A stretch of DNA of 64,000 bases from Escherichia coli (GCF_003334355.1 NZ_QOWP01000014.1); one strand, 5' to 3'; shown: positions 9,481 to 57,180, counted from the first letter of the stretch. Notes: generated from the letters alone by a model not told the origin. Numbers and translations: made by a program.

Positions 9481-10632
9481 TTAATCAGCTTGCTTACGCA
9501 GGAATGCTGGAATATCCAGATAATCCGGCTCTTTCGCAGTTTGCGGCGCATTGTCATTCACGACTTTAGCAATCGGCTTCTGCTCCTGGGTCAGCGGAGC
9601 CATCCCGTGCTGCTGGTAGCGATCCATCACTGGCTGCTGAACCTGCTTATTGGTCACCAGAGTGATTTCAGGACGTTTGTCCATGCCGATACCTGTCGCA
9701 ACAACAGTTACGCGCAGCTCGTCATTCATATCCGGGTCAAGAGAAGTACCGATAACCACGGTCGCGTTGTCGGAAGCAAATGCACGGATGGTGTTACCTA
9801 CCGTTTCGAACTCATCCAGACGCAGGTCGAAGCCCGCTGTGATGTTAACCAGCACGCCGCGTGCGCCAGACAGGTCGATATCTTCCAGCAGCGGAGAAGA
9901 GATAGCCATTTCAGCAGCTTCTTCCGCACGGTCTTCACCGCTCGCCACGCCAGAACCCATCATTGCGTAGCCCATTTCAGACATTACGGTGCGTACGTCT
10001 GCAAAGTCCACGTTCATCAAACCCGGACGAGTAATCAGTTCAGCGATACCTTGCACAGCGCCTTTCAGTACATCGTTCGCTGCGCCAAACGCATCCAGCA
10101 GGGAGATACCGCGGCCCAGAACTTTCAGCAGTTTGTCGTTCGGGATAGTGATCAGAGAGTCCACATGCTTGGACAGTTCAGTGATCCCCTGCTCCGCGAA
10201 TGCCATACGCTTCTTGCCTTCAAAGTTGAAAGGCTTAGTGACGACAGCAACGGTCAGGATACCCAAATCTTTTGCCACTTCAGCGACGACTGGTGCTGCA
10301 CCTGTACCGGTACCACCACCCATACCCGCAGCAATAAAGACCATGTCTGCACCTTCCAGCGCAGCACGCAATGCATCGCGATCCTCATCAGCCGCATTGC
10401 GGCCAACTTCTGGATTAGCGCCAGCGCCCAGTCCTTTGGTGATACCGCTACCGATTTGAATCGTCTGTCCAACCGCTGTTTTACGCAGCGCTTGTGCATC
10501 GGTATTTACCGCGAAGAATTCAACACCTTCAATGCGCTCACGCACCATGTGTTCAACAGCATTACCGCCGCCGCCGCCGACGCCGATGACTTTAATCACC
10601 GCGTCATTGGTAAGTTCCATTGGTTCAAACAT
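9481..10632 (-). CDS. ftsZ: Cell division GTPase FtsZ
   Basis: 383-aa ORF; tubulin signature GGGTGTG. Confidence 0.98.
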
Positions 10633-10692
10633 AGTTTCTCTCCGATTTGTGCCTGTCGCCTGAGGCCGTAATCATCGTCGGCCTCATAAAAA

Positions 10693-11955
10693 TTAAAACT
10701 CTTTTCGCAGCCAACTATTGAGTCGCTTGATCCACGAGCCAACTGATGCTGTAACACGTTTTTCTACTTCAGCTTCACCGTTAAGATGTGACTCTTTCCC
10801 ATAGTGAAGCAATCCCACCGCCGTCGAATAATACGGCTCCTGAGCATAATCCGTTAAACCGGTAATGTTCAGCGGCGCGCCGATACGCACTTGCGTATGA
10901 AACACGCGCTGAGCACAGGCTGCAAGACCTTCGATCTGCGCTGCGCCACCGGTTAATACAATGCCTGCCGCCAGGTGATGTTTAACCCCTTGTTGGCGAA
11001 GCTTTTCCTGCAACTGCAATATCTCTTCGTTGACCAGGTTGAGCAGCTCGGTATAGCGCGGCTCGATCACCTCTGCCAGGGTCTGACGTTGCAGACTCCG
11101 CGGCGGACGACCACCTACGCTCGGCACTTCCACGCTCTCATCTTTTCCAACGATGGAACCCAGCGCACAACCGTGGCGAACTTTAATCGCTTCGGCGTCG
11201 CTTGGCGGCGTGCCAAAGGCGTAAGCGATATCACTGGTCACGACATTGCCAGCATAAGGAATTACCTTAGTGTGGCGCAATGCCCCACCGGTATAAACGG
11301 CGATATCCATTGTACCACCACCGATATCGACGACGCAGACACCCAGTTCACGTTCATCTTCCGTCAATACCGAATAACTTGATGCCAGTCCGGCAAATAT
11401 CAGTTGGTCAACTTTCAGCCCACAACGTTCAACCGCTTTGACGATGTTTTTCGCCATATCGTTGTGACATGTGATCAGGTGCACTTTTGCCTGCATCCGC
11501 ACGCCCGAAAGTCCTACCGGATTCTTGATCCCTTCCTGATAGTCAATCGCATACTCTTGCGGGATCACATGCAGCACACGATGCTCATCGCGCACACGCA
11601 CCGATTTCGCGGTGTGGACGACGTTTTCCACATCTTCTTGCGTTACTTCTTCTTCAGAAATAGGCACCATACCAATTTCATTCTGGCAGCTGATGTGCTT
11701 ACCAGAAAGCGCCAGATATACCGAAGAGATCTGACAATCTGCCATCAATTCTGCCTGGTCAATGGCGCGTTGTACGCACTTGACCACGGATTCGAGGTCG
11801 TTCACCCCGCCTTTATCCATACCACGCGACGGGCAGCTGCCCACGCCAATGATATTGACCATACCGTCGGGCAGAACTTCCCCTACTAAAGCGGCAACCT
11901 TCGCGGTACCAATCTCCAGTCCTACTACCAGTTTTCTGTCCGTCGCCTTGATCAT
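10693..11955 (-). CDS. ftsA: Cell division protein FtsA (actin-like ATPase)
   Basis: 420-aa ORF; actin/Hsp70 fold motifs; 4-nt overlap with ftsQ. Confidence 0.98.
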
Positions 11956-26303: not shown

Positions 26304-26320
26304 GCCAGCCTCACCCCTTA

Positions 26321-26347
26321 TTCCCACTTTGCCCCACAATTTCCCAC
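26321..26347 (-). promoter_or_regulatory. Three direct repeats (GTGGGAA / GTGGGGC / GTGGGAA on the coding strand, 10-bp period) in mraZ 5' leader: MraZ operator repeats / Pmra region
   Basis: Top strand ttcccac-ttt-gccccac-aat-ttcccac at 26321-26347, 18 nt upstream of mraZ ATG; MraZ is known to bind direct TGGGN repeats in its own promoter region. Confidence 0.75.
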
Positions 26348-26858
26348 TGAAAGGAGTTTACGGAGCTGAGGAAAAGCTTGTCAAGCCAGTCACAAGGCAT
26401 ACCGAGGTAAAAAACCCGATGTTTACGGCTAATATCAGCGTTGTTTATTTTACGTCCAACGTGCGAAGCAAATTAACGTTATGAATAGCTGTAAGAAAAA
26501 ATCCCTCATCGTCATCACTGTTTTAAAATGACTCACTATTTTCCACAGCAAATATAAAGTGTCAGTTTGCGACGCGAGCGGCATTTTAGGACATATCTTC
26601 CCCGGTTAACAGTCCTTGTTACGTCTGTGTGGCGCTTGATGCCAGCGGGTTTGCGCAAAAGCAAAGAAAAGTGTTTGTTAAATCGGCAATTCATCGCCGC
26701 ATGTAACAAAATAATGCAAAAACGCGCTGTCGATATCACTTAATTATTGTGAATTTCAGCTGGTGAGTTAATTAACGGGCGGGTTTAAAAGCATTTATCA
26801 ATAATAGTCAGGAATAGTCTTATTTACTTTAAGCATATTGATGTCCAGTCCCGTACTC

Positions 26859-26895
26859 TACGCGCCAGAGGGAAATTCACCTGGCGCGTATTTTT
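26859..26895 (+). terminator. Terminator-like hairpin with T-tract oriented on the top strand, 10 nt from cra stop
   Basis: 10-bp stem tacgcgccag / ctggcgcgta with 12-nt loop followed by ttttt on the + strand; no U-tract in the cra (reverse) orientation. Confidence 0.4.
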
Positions 26896-26904
26896 GTTCG
26901 CGGC

Positions 26905-28088: not shown

Positions 28089-28580
28089 TCAACGCATTAT
28101 TTTATCGCCGCGCGAAAGTCCGACCACACCAGAGCGAGCAACCTCCACAATTTTCGCCACATCGCGAATCGATGCTAAAAATGCATCAAGCTTACCGCTG
28201 GTGCCTGCTAATTGAACGGTATAAAGCGAGGGTGTGACATCGATAATTTGCCCACGGAATATTTCCGTATTACGTTTCACTTCGTCACGCCCGTAACCGC
28301 TGGCCTGAATTTTCACCAGCATGATTTCCCGCTCAACATGCGCGCCCTGCCCCAACTCACTCACGCGCAAGACATCGACCAGCTTGTGTAATTGCTTTTC
28401 GATCTGCTCAAGTACTTTTTCATCGCCCACGGTCTGGATGGTCATACGCGATAATGTCGGATCGTCGGTTGGCGCAACGGTCAGGCTTTCAATGTTGTAG
28501 CCACGCTGGGAAAAAAGGCCAATCACGCGGGATAACGCGCCTGATTCATTTTCGAGTAAGACTGATAATATCCGGCGCAT
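28089..28580 (-). CDS. ilvH: Acetolactate synthase III small (regulatory) subunit
   Basis: 163 aa from internal ATG ([19 protein letters not shown]...); ACT domain; follows ilvI with 2-nt gap. Confidence 0.94.
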
Positions 28581-28582
28581 AA

Positions 28583-30307
28583 TCAGGTTCTCTCCGTTTT
28601 GCTTAACCACATTTCATCCATTCCGCCCCCGCGAATCTGCATCGGGTAGACGTGCTCGCTGCCATCGACGGTAACATCAACAAACACCAGGCGATTATTG
28701 CGCACCTGTTCCAGCGCCTCGCTAAGTTTGCTTTCCAGCTCATGCGGATGAGAAATCTGGATCCCGACATGCCCATAGGCTTCCGCCAGACGGACGAAAT
28801 CGGGTAGCGATTGCATATAAGATTGTGAATGACGGCCGGAATAGATCATGTCTTGCCACTGCTTCACCATCCCCAGATAGCGGTTATTGAGATTCACCAC
28901 CAGTACGGGCAACTCGTATTGCAACGCGGTAGACAGTTCCTGGATGTTCATCTGAATACTGCCGTCGCCAGTGACGCAAACCACGGTTTCTTCTGGCAAC
29001 GCCATTTTGACGCCCAGTGCCGCAGGTAAACCAAAACCCATCGTGCCGAGGCCACCGGAATTGATCCAGCGACGCGGTTTGTCGAATGGATAATAAAGTG
29101 CAGCAAACATCTGGTGCTGCCCGACATCGGACGTCACGTAAGCGTCTCCCTTCGTCAACCGCCAAAGAGTCTCGATCACCGCCTGCGGTTTAATCTTTTC
29201 ACTGTGAGTGTCATATTTCAGGCACTGACGAGCGCGCCACTGTTCAATTTGCTGCCACCAGTCGCGGATCTCATCCAGCGGTTGATGGGCGGATTCTTGC
29301 GACAAGAGTTCAAGCATTTGTTCGAGGACCTGGCGAGCATCCCCCACAATCGGGATATCCGCAGTCACGGTTTTAGAAATGGAAGTAGGATCAATATCGA
29401 TATGCAGAACAGTGGCATTTGGGCAGTACTTTGCCAGATTGTTCGTCGTTCGGTCATCAAATCGTACCCCGACGGCGAAAATCACATCCGCGTTATGCAT
29501 CGTCATATTGGCTTCGTAGGTACCGTGCATTCCCAGCATGCCCAGTGCCTGACGATGCGTTGCCGGAAACGCCCCCAGCCCCATCAATGAGCAAACAACG
29601 GGCAGATTCAACGCCTCCACCGTTTCTTTCAACTGCTGATGGCAGCCCGCCGTGATTGCCCCACCGCCTACGTAGACAACCGGTTTTTTTGCCGCTACCA
29701 GCGTTTGCAGAGCACGCTTAATTTGCCCTTTATGTCCGGTAGTAGTGGGATTGTAAGAACGCATACTGACCGACTCCGGCCAGACATAGGGTAATTTGTT
29801 CGCCGGATTAAGAATATCTTTCGGTAAATCAACGACTACTGGTCCTGGGCGACCACTTGCCGCCAGCCAGAAAGCCTTTTTCAGCACCTGCGGAATGTCT
29901 TCCGTTTGCTTAACCAGAAAACTGTGTTTAACCACCGGTCGCGAAATCCCCACCATGTCGCACTCCTGAAAGGCATCGTAACCTATCAACGAGGTCGCTA
30001 CCTGCCCGGAAAGGACAACTAATGGAATGGAATCCATATAAGCGGTGGCGATGCCAGTAATCGCATTGGTCGCCCCTGGACCCGACGTTACCAGCACGAC
30101 GCCGACTTCCCCGGTCGCGCGCGCCAGGCCATCGGCCATATGCACCGCCGCCTGCTCATGACGAACTAATACATGATCAATACCACCCACGGTATGCAAT
30201 GCATCATAAATATCAAGGACTGCGCCTCCGGGATAACCGAATACTTGTTTAACGCCCTGATCGATAAGCGATCGGACGACCATCTCGGCTCCAGACAACA
30301 TCTCCAT
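28583..30307 (-). CDS. ilvI: Acetolactate synthase III large subunit
   Basis: 574 aa from internal ATG ([14 protein letters not shown]...); ThDP-binding motifs. Confidence 0.95.
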
Positions 30308-30624
30308 GGCCTGCCTCACTGTTTGACGGAAAAAATGTGTAAAACACATTAACCGTCCGATCTTGCTTAAGCAATTGGCAGCCAGAGACATAAACACGGG
30401 GTAATAAGAATAAACAGGAGGAAAGGTGAAAAGAAACGATAAAATCCTCCATTACAGAGGATTAAATTGATAATAAATCGGCTGAATCCCACAACTTACA
30501 GCAATTTCTCTATTTTTTTAATTAATCCTAAAATAGAGAGCCCACACATTCAGAATAAAATTCTACATTCAATAAAAAATGCAGAATAAACCAGACATTC
30601 ATGTCTGACCTATTCTGCAATCAG
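30308..30624 (-). promoter_or_regulatory. ilvIH promoter region with multiple AT-rich Lrp-type sites
   Basis: AT-rich 317-bp spacer with repeated cagaataaa-like motifs resembling Lrp consensus; ilvIH is an established Lrp-activated operon. Confidence 0.55.
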
Positions 30625-31569
30625 TTAGCGTTTGCAAATTGAGACTAATTGCTCTTCCATCCACTGATGGCCTTTATCGCGCCCGGCAGCTTCATGCCAG
30701 GAGAGATAACAGGTTCTGCTGTTTTGTTTTAACGGCAGCGGTAATACCTGTAATTCTAAGGATTCAGCGAACTCTTCAGCCAGCCAACGCGGCGCAATAG
30801 CGACCAAATGCGTTTGCGACACCACGCTAAGTACGCTCATCATTGCCATGCCCTGATACGCGATACTGGCTTGCTTATCTACCGTGTCATACCAAGGTTG
30901 ACTAAATGACGCGAAACGATCGAGCGAAACCGCCGCATGTTGTTCGTTATAAACATCATGTTTCAGTAACGGGCCCTTAATTGTTGGATGATTTTTGCTG
31001 GCTACCAGCACCATTTCATCTTTAAATAATGGTACGCTGGTAAATTCAGGACGATGGAAGTCTTCATAACTAATCACAAACTCCGTTTCCTGATAACGCA
31101 GCTGATGTTCAGTGTTCTGATTTAATGAAGACTTGAACATAACATGTATATTTGGCGCAATCTGCTCAATGTGATTATAAATCTGCGAGGTCAGAATGCT
31201 GTCTAACGGGCTGCAAACACAAAGATGAAATACACGTTCACTGCTCGCGGGTTCAAAACCTGAACCAGGCAATTCATTTTGTACTAGTTGCAATGCCTGA
31301 CGAACTGAACCAAAAAGTTGAAATGCGCGAGCAGTCGGTTGAATACCACGGCCATAACGAACAAAAAGCTCGTCATTAAACATCACCTTCAGGCGTGCAA
31401 CAGCGTTACTGACCGCAGGTTGCGACATTCCCAGAACATGAGCGGCACGAGTAATGTTTTGCTCCTGCATCACGGCATCGAAAACGGTTAATAAGTTGAG
31501 ATCGACCATGCGTAGCTGTGGCTTGCTTAACTCCGCCGTCTCTGGATGATCTGTTTGTACCTCTGGCAT
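30625..31569 (-). CDS. leuO: LysR-type transcriptional regulator LeuO
   Basis: 314 aa from internal ATG ([30 protein letters not shown]...); LysR HTH; divergent from leuLABCD. Confidence 0.94.
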
Positions 31570-31624
31570 ACTTAACTCCACTGTCACACTTAACTCCCTT
31601 TCCCTTATTGGAATGCAGAGAAAT

Positions 31625-32060
31625 AATCCTCGAGAATATGATTTATCATGCATATAAAATAAGAAAAAGGAAAATGAGTAAAATTAGGAAAACATAAAGA
31701 TACGGGTTCTGATAAAAACAGAATCCATTGCCGTGGAATGAGTCATTTACCACAGCATAATAATCCATAATGTTTTTGTTGCGAAAACAATCTAATCATA
31801 ACTACCGCGAATACTCAATCATCTACAAAATGGATTAAATGTGCTTATTTAATAATTAATTTATATATTTAATGCATTAATTCTTAACATTAATTGATCA
31901 ATAATATTCACCAAATCAATATCAAAAAAAATCGCAAAACATATAATTCAATACAAATCATCAGGATAGGTTTTGCAACGCGTGCATTTTGTCCCCTTTT
32001 TCCTCGTTGATTAGATGCAAAAATTTATGCTGAAATATGTCAACCGATGAAAAGCGTCGG
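31625..32060. promoter_or_regulatory. Strongly AT-rich leuO-leuL intergenic island (H-NS-type silencing / promoter-relay region)
   Basis: About 430 bp of very AT-rich sequence with A/T tracts (aataattaatttatatatttaatgcattaattcttaacattaattgatcaataatatt); lies between divergent leuO and leuL. Confidence 0.6.
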
Positions 32061-32228
32061 TAGTTAAGCAGAAATTAATATCGCTTACTTTAACCACCGC
32101 AGCACAATTAGCTAATTTTACGGATGCAGAACTCACGCTGGCGGGACGTTTTTATTGCGTCAGGGTTGACATCCGTTTTTGTATCCAGTAACTCTAAAAG
32201 CATATCGCATTCATCTGGAGCTGATTTA

Positions 32229-32315
32229 ATGACTCACATCGTTCGCTTTATCGGTCTACTACTACTAAACGCATCTTCTTTGCGCGGTAGACGAGTGAGC
32301 GGCATCCAGCATTAA
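32229..32315 (+). CDS. leuL: leu operon leader peptide
   Basis: 28-codon [31 protein letters not shown] with four consecutive CUA Leu codons; followed by attenuator hairpin. Confidence 0.9.
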
Positions 32316-32338
32316 GCCAGCACGCAGTCAAACAAAAA

Positions 32339-32365
32339 ACCCGCGCCATTGCGCGGGTTTTTTTA
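32339..32365 (+). terminator. leu attenuator (intrinsic terminator)
   Basis: acccgcgc-catt-gcgcgggt stem-loop followed by 7 T, 24 nt after leuL stop and 43 nt before leuA. Confidence 0.9.
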
Positions 32366-32407
32366 TGCCCGAAGCGAGGCGCTCTAAAAGAGACAAGGAC
32401 CCAAACC

Positions 32408-35070
<2,663 letters not shown>

Positions 35071-56249: not shown

Positions 56250-56261
56250 TCGTCACGCTGG

Positions 56262-56356
56262 CGCAGTTCGGTAGGCGGATAAGGCGTTCACGCCGCATCC
56301 GGCAATTGTGCGCCGATTGCCTGATGCGACGCGGCCGCGTCTTATCAGGCCTACAG
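56262..56356. repeat. REP pair between convergent rluA and djlA
   Basis: gcggataaggcgttcacgccgcatccggca and gcctgatgcgacgcggccgcgtcttatcaggcctac REP motifs. Confidence 0.88.
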
Positions 56357-56364
56357 TTTAAAAC

Positions 56365-57180
56365 TTATTTAAACCCTTTCTGCTGCTTTATCAGCTCATA
56401 TGCCTGCTGAATTTCCTGCGCTTTCTGCTTCGCCATCTCCATCATCTCAGGCGGCAAACCTTTCGCCACCAGCTTATCGGGATGGTGTTCACTCATCAGC
56501 TTACGGTAGGCACGTTTGATGGTGGTCGCATCATCCGTCGGCTTCACGCCCAGCACATTACAGGCATCTTCCAGCGTCGGGCCACGCTGCGCTTGCTGCC
56601 AGTTACCACCGCCAGATTGCTGCTGATAACCGCCGCCAAACTGTGCACCGCCCTGCATCATGCGCAAAAACTGGTCAAACTGGGCGCGGGAGATCCCTAA
56701 TTCTTCAGCAATGACATACAGCACCGCCCGTTCATTCGGGTGCAGTGAACCATCAGCAAACGCCGCCTGAATCTGGATCTCCAGAAACATACGAATTAAG
56801 TCAAAACGACCAAAGCAGACACTGCGAAACTGGCGCATCTTTTCGCGCAGCGGGTAATTGTCTGATTTTCCCACCCGGAACGCATTTTGCGCCGCAGTAC
56901 GGGAAGCGCCATGAAGATTCATTCGGTCCATCAACTGGCTGGCGATATGAATATCAGCCTCCGTGACGCGACCTTTGGATTTGGTTAAATGCCCCATCAC
57001 TTCAAAAGTGGTGGCAAAAAACAGCGCCTGACGCTCACGCTGGTTGGCGAACCACGCCATTTTACGGCTACGGGCTTTATCAAACATATGGCCAATTAAC
57101 AGGCCTAACACTACGCCCCAAAAGCCGCCGCCCATCAGTAAGGCCACGGCCACGCCAATGATTTTTCCCCAATACTGCAT
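56365..57180 (-). CDS. djlA: Membrane-anchored DnaJ-like co-chaperone DjlA
   Basis: 271 aa from internal ATG ([19 protein letters not shown]...); C-terminal J-domain with HPD motif ([13 protein letters not shown]). Confidence 0.95.

Follow-up and report, generated by a model that had tools for sequence, protein, structure and literature searches.

LeuO is a master antagonist of H-NS, with CRISPR-Cas, multidrug efflux, bgl, porins and virulence genes under its control, and the leuO locus is a textbook case of transcription-coupled supercoiling linking neighboring promoters. As LeuO antagonizes H-NS so broadly, silencing of its own promoter sets the state of a large regulon, and the question that this locus raises is what the very AT-rich DNA between leuO and the divergent leucine operon does there: whether it silences, whether it acts through topology, or whether it has a function at all. 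We have considered this question for a stretch of 64,000 nucleotides from Escherichia coli, which in its entirety is called the window here. The main outcome is that a known H-NS target is recognizable from raw sequence alone: the AT-rich island is real, and its biology as the H-NS-silenced control region of leuO is already known. What is mildly new, and of modest added value, is the conservation of the AT peak in two bacterial families, along with a few conserved boxes.

The window is a chromosome segment of a non-K-12 E. coli, collinear, in reverse-complemented orientation, with 51.0-115.9 kb of MG1655, and the identity to MG1655 along the whole window is 99.1-99.7%, with a replaced yabP/yabQ segment as the sole difference. 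A megablast search with positions 31400-32450 matched 5400 of the 5426 complete E. coli genomes, the annotation beneath the matches giving leuO, leuL and leuA, and strain VG1046-3E9 is 100% identical to the window except for an IS1 of its own. Gene calls, the Rfam leader match and the K-12 annotation agree on the locus, which an initial annotation of this DNA had rightly named as the interval between divergent leuO and leuLABCD (Table 1). The leucine leader is recognized by a covariance match above the gathering score together with the Leu-codon-rich leuL leader peptide of 28 residues, and it adjoins the AT-rich island, lying outside the island itself. The interval in question, 31625-32060, falls within the 659-bp leuO-leuL intergenic region (31570-32228). 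The gene order is that of the promoter relay: ilvIH follows leuO in the same direction and leuLABCD diverges from leuO, and this ilvIH-leuO-leuLABCD arrangement is common to all of the enterobacterial genera sampled.

Table 1. Features of the leuO locus, in coordinates of the 64-kb window
Feature	Position	Strand	Basis
ilvH	28089-28580	-	K-12 annotation mapped onto window
ilvI	28583-30307	-	ORF call and K-12 annotation
ilvI-leuO spacer (ilvIH upstream regulatory region), 64.4% AT	30308-30624		K-12 annotation, composition
yabR, tiny 14-codon ORF in the ilvI-leuO spacer	~30426-30470	+	
Putative intrinsic leuO terminator, 18-pair hairpin followed by T-run	30580-30619	-	Directly after leuO stop codon
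leuO CDS, 314 aa	30625-31569	-	ORF call and K-12 annotation
Tandem 18-nt repeat, two Shine-Dalgarno-plus-start modules at leuO start	31560-31595	-	Repeat search and alignment
AT-rich island, peak of leuO-leuL intergenic region, 70.9-72.0% AT	31605-32060		Composition
~68-bp block AATATGATTTACCATGCATATAAAATAAGAAAAAG...TAAAATTAGGAAAACATAAAG, kept across enterobacterial genera	31633-31700	-	13-species alignment
Candidate distal leuO promoter, TTCGCA, 17 nt, TATTAT	31757-31785	-	Sigma-70 consensus scan
Island core, 80-88% AT in 50-bp windows, overlapping AT palindromes	31826-31935		Windowed composition
7-5-7 palindrome ATATTCAccaaaTCAATAT, putative LeuO core site	31904-31922		Comparison with K-12 cas3-casA spacer
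Box CAGCACAATTAGCTAA, putative cis-element at leuL-side edge	32100-32115	+	Alignment and species-locus scan
Putative leuL promoter, TTGACA, 17 nt, TAACTC, conserved across genera	32166-32194	+	Sequence reading and alignment
Leucine operon leader/attenuator	32215-32364	+	Rfam RF00512, 145.8 bits (gathering score 50)
leuL	32229-32315	+	Inside Rfam leucine leader
leuA	32408-33979	+	ORF call and K-12 annotation

As to composition, the AT content computed here for 31625-32060 is 70.9%, which exceeds the mean of 47.0% for the window by more than 6 SD (436-bp windows, SD 4.0 points), and the top 436-bp window by AT in the entire 64 kb is 31605-32040, at 72.0%; the proposal of an AT-rich island at this place is thus borne out by the windowed values. 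Of the 24 intergenic regions of at least 40 bp, as defined by the K-12 annotation mapped onto the window, the leuO-leuL region (67.1% AT) ranks first in both length and AT. One possible explanation would be passive drift, with a long non-coding spacer harboring two promoters turning AT-rich through mutational bias, a composition without a function, and the intergenic DNA of the window does generally exceed the coding DNA in AT (56.7 versus 46.3%, pooled). However, the island is about 17 points higher than the rest of the intergenic DNA, which pools at 54.2% when the two leuO flanks are set aside. It is against the intergenic average that the initial annotation had staked its proposal, and as the island (70.9%) lies above the other intergenic regions, the AT-rich island must be considered real. 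AT content far above background over hundreds of base pairs, one mark of an H-NS/StpA-silenced regulatory region, was thus found.

The island also stands out by the low stability of its duplex. By nearest-neighbor energies, no other 100-bp duplex of the window is as unstable as 31833-31932 (z = 5.9), and TpA steps make up 9.4% of the island versus 4.1% of the window. These properties invite the alternative that the island is mainly topological, the most easily unwound DNA of the region absorbing negative supercoils and passing activity between ilvIH, leuO and leu, with silencing being secondary: the least stable duplex of the 64 kb lies between divergent promoters, the relay of Lrp/ilvIH, leuO and the leu-500 promoter has been described as supercoiling-dependent (PMC4264507), and in Salmonella the transcription of leuO goes up more than 10-fold when other transcription is placed 427 bp upstream of its start (PMC10981669). 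However, the authors of the Salmonella study take this very effect to support a transcription-dependent lifting of H-NS silencing and do not present it as an action of supercoils on naked DNA (PMC10981669), and leuO is de-repressed in hns stpA mutants (PMC3950696). A mainly topological island appears unlikely on balance, if by no means far-fetched, and a topological role is in any case complementary to an H-NS filament, not exclusive of it.

The case for silencing by H-NS and StpA is built on an extensive literature. In E. coli, leuO is repressed by both proteins and is silent under laboratory conditions (PMC5025477, PMC3950696, PMC6698644), while mutants in both hns and stpA de-repress it (PMC3950696, PMC5025477). 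At least two leuO promoters, P1 and P2, are present in E. coli, with LeuO autoregulating both positively and negatively and BglJ-RcsB activating P2 from a site approximately 70 bp upstream (PMC5025477, PMC3950696, PMC6698644). In terms of occupancy in vivo, H-NS was found by ChIP-chip in E. coli at what was termed the "well-characterized leuO locus" (PMC1636352), Salmonella ChIP-seq uses leuO as a reference for H-NS binding (PMC10981669), and in Vibrio vulnificus H-NS is reported to bind the DNA upstream of leuO over more than 160 bp (PMC9728156). As reviewed in PMC4264507, Lrp-activated ilvIH transcription alters local supercoiling, exposing the leuO regulatory region, and from its H-NS sites a filament can spread in cis, which LeuO blocks, permitting leu transcription. 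The promoter relay and the H-NS/LeuO antagonism that had been proposed for this DNA therefore match the published work on the locus (PMC4264507, PMC5025477, PMC3950696, PMC6698644).

From the composition observed here and from the occupancy and repression known from the literature, we infer that the island is the platform on which H-NS and StpA silence leuO. The mechanism that we hold to be very probable is as follows. H-NS and its paralogue StpA would bind the AT-rich, easily deformed island and polymerize along the DNA, and the filament would probably run on through the AT-biased leuO coding sequence, presumably occluding the leuO promoters and thus keeping leuO off in ordinary growth. LeuO, from the palindromic core at 31904-31922, as well as BglJ-RcsB and Lrp, from sites inside the island or at its edges, would counteract or modulate the filament, and negative supercoils generated by ilvIH and leu transcription would likely help open the least stable duplex. 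Supercoil-driven opening of the island would couple the three promoters, in what is known as the "promoter relay." Of these elements, H-NS/StpA repression, occupancy in vivo, the action of LeuO and BglJ-RcsB and the relay are drawn from the literature.

The initial annotation had spoken of phased A/T tracts, and this detail finds slight backing: the 27 A/T tracts of the region are irregularly spaced, the AA/TT Fourier power at 10-11.5 bp over 31625-32060 is not significant (p ~0.07 against dinucleotide-preserving shuffles), and no consistent 10-11 bp periodicity was found across the orthologous islands from 45 enterobacteria and 61 Vibrionaceae. Only the core at 31820-31960, selected post hoc, gives an 11-bp signal (p ~0.003, uncorrected). 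An 8-bp signal in the enterobacteria goes back to the conserved block of A-tracts at 31656-31692, which these species share by inheritance and not independently. Curvature, predicted with a wedge model, is above the window average for the island (9.5 versus 5.8 +/- 3.2 degrees per turn) and locally peaks at up to 19, yet it is not the highest in the window, higher values being present elsewhere. The published high-affinity H-NS motif TCGATAAATT (attributed to Lang et al., 2007) is matched twice within the island with two mismatches (at 31858 and 31892) and nowhere more closely, and motif matches in the island are not enriched beyond what its composition predicts. With a good match lacking in the island, a discrete nucleation site is not evident from the sequence; the proposed H-NS region thus stands as far as silencing and occupancy are published for leuO, but the "nucleation" in it cannot be placed from sequence.

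The AT bias is not confined to the intergenic DNA. At synonymous sites, leuO has an AT3 of 56.5%, versus 39-47% in ilvI, ilvH, cra and leuABC, about 10-18 points above its neighbors, and AT3 reaches 73-83% over codons 60-120. As the synonymous sites of leuO are AT-enriched, the AT-rich domain runs through the gene, covering approximately 1.9 kb (30308-32230), with 31625-32060 as its peak. The AT-rich interior of leuO could be an intragenic (downstream) H-NS-binding element like those of bgl and proU, judging by its composition. Within leuO, the enrichment is especially pronounced at 31200-31390 and 30980-31080, and an AT bump is seen at +400 to +450 in the enterobacterial orthologues. On the far side of leuO, the second AT-rich spacer pointed out by the initial annotation is exactly the ilvI-leuO intergenic region, so that leuO does lie between two such spacers, and an AA/TT periodicity of 10.25 bp in this region was reached by none of 300 shuffles. 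The putative leuO terminator lies inside this ilvIH upstream region, and the arms of its hairpin hold CAGAATA repeats resembling Lrp half-sites.

What sites for the antagonists of H-NS can be recognized? In PMC6698644, a 19-bp 7-5-7 palindrome is described in LeuO site IIa of the cas promoter, and LeuO site I, at leuO, is said to hold an "almost identical" palindrome. A cas-like palindrome of this kind is indeed present in the region: ATATTCAccaaaTCAATAT, in the AT-rich core, is a near copy of ATATTCAtactgTGAATAT from the K-12 cas3-casA intergenic region, and it is taken to be the LeuO core site, placed through comparison with the K-12 cas spacer. In an alignment of upstream regions from 13 enterobacterial species, E. 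coli and E. albertii alone share this palindrome. As to BglJ-RcsB, a partial consensus, wwTTCykA, is quoted in PMC3950696, and AATTCTTA at 31879-31886 (+) was matched to it by eye; an 8-mer in DNA of 80% AT is nonspecific, and therefore this sequence is not claimed as a BglJ-RcsB site. As to Lrp, a strong ChIP-seq peak is located at the ilvI start, and leuO is among the direct Lrp targets (bioRxiv 10.1101/276808). In the ilvIH spacer, the Lrp consensus is matched at 30551-30565 with a single mismatch and at a second place with three mismatches, and matches over the whole window are barely above chance (86 versus 65.8 +/- 9.4).

We now have comparisons across two families that bear on whether the composition is functional. 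One genome per species was scanned with a degenerate pattern encoding a 12-residue peptide of the LeuO helix-turn-helix, and this gave 120 loci, from Enterobacteriaceae, with LeuO 72-97% identical, and from Vibrionaceae, with LeuO 45-55% identical. Among the loci with enough flanking DNA, the 400-bp window of highest AT within the ~10-kb locus is found just upstream of leuO (window start 250-700 bp upstream of the ATG, with a chance of ~5% per locus) in 25 of 25 Enterobacteriaceae and in 43 of 50 Vibrionaceae species, numbers that do not represent independent trials, as the species are phylogenetically related. Mean AT at -480 to -50 is 69.0% versus 47.8% for the locus in the enterobacteria, and 66.3% versus 55.7% in the Vibrionaceae. 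In the latter, the upstream neighbor of leuO is co-directional with it and leuA is kilobases away, which ties the island to leuO and not to the leu promoter. The core of the enterobacterial island is not alignable between genera, yet it is AT-rich in all of them (13-species alignment), so that conservation of composition rather than of sequence is a reasonable reading. For passive drift, one could point to this very lack of conserved core sequence between genera and to the faster divergence of the island within E. coli, described below. Against it, the AT peak is maintained at the same place relative to leuO despite turnover of the sequence and change of neighbors, and function is demonstrated through published genetics and ChIP. 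We therefore reject drift, as a very unlikely explanation.

Within E. coli, the island is found in 5398 of the 5426 complete genomes and is intact in 5358 of these, approximately 40 of the 5398 possessing no intact copy. It diverges faster than its flanks: the class of 90-95% identity contains 1057 genomes when the island alone is the query, versus 6 for the 1051-bp query that includes the coding flanks. IS1A is present at the locus in at least three strains (VG1046-3E9, CUVM53, and FDAARGOS_943), in three different events. In one, the insertion is at the start codon of leuO, where 31563-31572 forms a 10-bp target duplication or overlap; in another, the 5' part of leuO and almost the whole island are lost; and in the third, leuO and the island are wholly replaced. 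Three of the matches to the leuO-leuL region among the complete E. coli genomes are on records labeled as plasmid, not chromosome. Do the IS1 events, the AT-rich island and the AT-biased synonymous sites of leuO betray a horizontally acquired, xenogeneic remnant silenced by H-NS, such as are found in pathogenicity islands? The near-universal presence in E. coli and the synteny shared by all of the sampled enterobacterial genera speak against this, and the IS1 copies represent strain-specific insertions and deletions. Neither the patchy distribution nor the mobile-element, integrase, repeat or tRNA boundaries of a genomic island were found here, with no tRNA in the 64-kb window. Such an origin appears scarcely conceivable and is rejected.

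While the core has turned over, parts of the leuO-leuL region are conserved across the 13 species aligned: the leuO ribosome-binding region, the block at 31633-31700, the box at 32100-32115, and the leuL promoter and leader, with additional short patches near 31798-31818 and 31884-31900. The positions of leuO promoters and regulator sites given here are those that we infer. The block at 31633-31700, situated 65-130 bp upstream of the leuO ATG and carrying A-tracts 7-9 bp apart, probably contains the proximal promoter of leuO or forms its 5' leader, and its position would roughly fit the geometry of the Salmonella leuO transcription start in PMC10981669. The candidate at 31757-31785 is the sole sigma-70-like consensus match on the leuO strand, with a -10 element that is not conserved in Salmonella. 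As the sigma-70 scan produced fewer matches than shuffled sequences (2 versus 5.7) and missed the conserved leuL promoter, it is uninformative for DNA this rich in AT. The leuL transcription start is presumably near 32202, as in the K-12 annotation. The box at the leuL-side edge, which can also be written CAGCACAAT(T/A)AGCTAA, is located approximately 95 bp upstream of the putative leuL start. Its position is fixed at -299 to -311 from the leuA ATG: of 34 true enterobacterial species loci, 27 have it there with at most two mismatches and the remaining seven with 3-5 mismatches. The box is Lrp-like, departing from the Lrp consensus by 2-3 mismatches, and in several Vibrio loci another box of this kind (CAGCACGTTTTTCTAT) is seen at -188. 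At the leuO start, the tandem repeat consists of GGGAGTTAAGT-GTG followed by TGGAGTTAAGT-ATG six codons on, in frame, and is conserved across the enterobacterial genera; the upstream GTG is a possible alternative start, for a LeuO longer by six residues. One may speculate further that selection upstream of leuO acts on composition and not on sequence, implying an ancient "self-silenced anti-silencer" module, and that the 31633-31700 block, the CAGCACAATTAGCTAA box or the duplicated Shine-Dalgarno-start module could be a site or a switch for a leuO-inducing signal, a proposal that we view as doubtful at present.

Conserved sequence could also be the mark of a hidden gene, for a small protein or a small RNA. 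The interval does contain ORFs of 38-41 aa, at 31646-31768 (-), 31894-32010 (+) and 32011-32136 (-), in addition to the conserved 68-bp block. However, these ORFs lie in indel-bearing segments and are unconserved between genera, the island has no Rfam match even at E <= 1, save for chance matches to microRNA models on the palindrome at 32043-32114, nothing is annotated in it in either K-12 or RefSeq, and the block is better explained as leuO promoter or leader. A hidden ORF or small RNA is thus very unlikely indeed, and it was rejected as well. The palindrome at 32043-32114 is an imperfect inverted repeat, with ACCGATGAAAAGCGTCGGT at 32043-32061 and GGTAGTTAAGC...GCTTACTTTAACC around 32058-32095, its microRNA-model matches being on both strands and its conservation limited to E. 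coli and E. albertii.

The closest known system is the leuO regulatory region of E. coli K-12, reportedly described by Stratmann and colleagues in 2012 and summarized in PMC5025477 and PMC3950696. Locus and gene order are the same, the 659-bp spacer is of equal length and ~99% identical, and the LeuO-type palindrome is present, with strain-level SNPs as the only differences. Next is Salmonella Typhimurium, for which the relay and the AT-rich gene-silencer elements are said to have been worked out by Fang and Wu in 1998 and by Chen and colleagues in 2001, 2003 and 2005 (cited in PMC4264507). Synteny, divergent arrangement, position of the island and the model of an H-NS filament with LeuO as a barrier are all shared, and the island of S. 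enterica arizonae is 71.9% AT at -480 to -50. Salmonella differs in that the core is unalignable with that of E. coli, only the flanking blocks being conserved, and in that the LeuO palindrome of E. coli is not conserved; the demonstration of the promoter relay is limited to Salmonella carrying the leu-500 allele and does not extend to the strain considered here. Likeness to the H-NS-silenced bgl and proU lies in AT-rich upstream DNA combined with an AT-biased transcribed region, the downstream element in leuO being suggested by composition, and in de-repression by LeuO or BglJ-RcsB. As to Vibrio, the leuO promoters are reported to be bound by H-NS and ToxR (PMC9728156, PMC3760244), and they too have an AT-rich peak directly upstream, but they differ in their shorter spacer (~350 bp), the co-directional neighbor, the absence of an adjacent leu operon and the use of other activators.

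A few additional observations concern the remainder of the window. Within the cra-mraZ intergenic region (26304-26904, 601 bp) lies the 436-bp window that ranks third by AT in the 64 kb (26409-26844, 61.7% AT), and, leaving aside the leuO flanks, some of the duplex segments of lowest stability are located there as well. The K-12 genes yabP/yabQ (~1.5 kb between djlA and rluA) are missing, and in their place are approximately 117 bp, at 56250-56366, that carry an element of the REP/naRNA4 type (Rfam match at 56273-56351). An Rfam match above the gathering score (105.5 bits) to PssrA, a plasmid-encoded small RNA of Shigella, is found at the chromosomal ftsA-ftsZ junction, at 10624-10713 (-).
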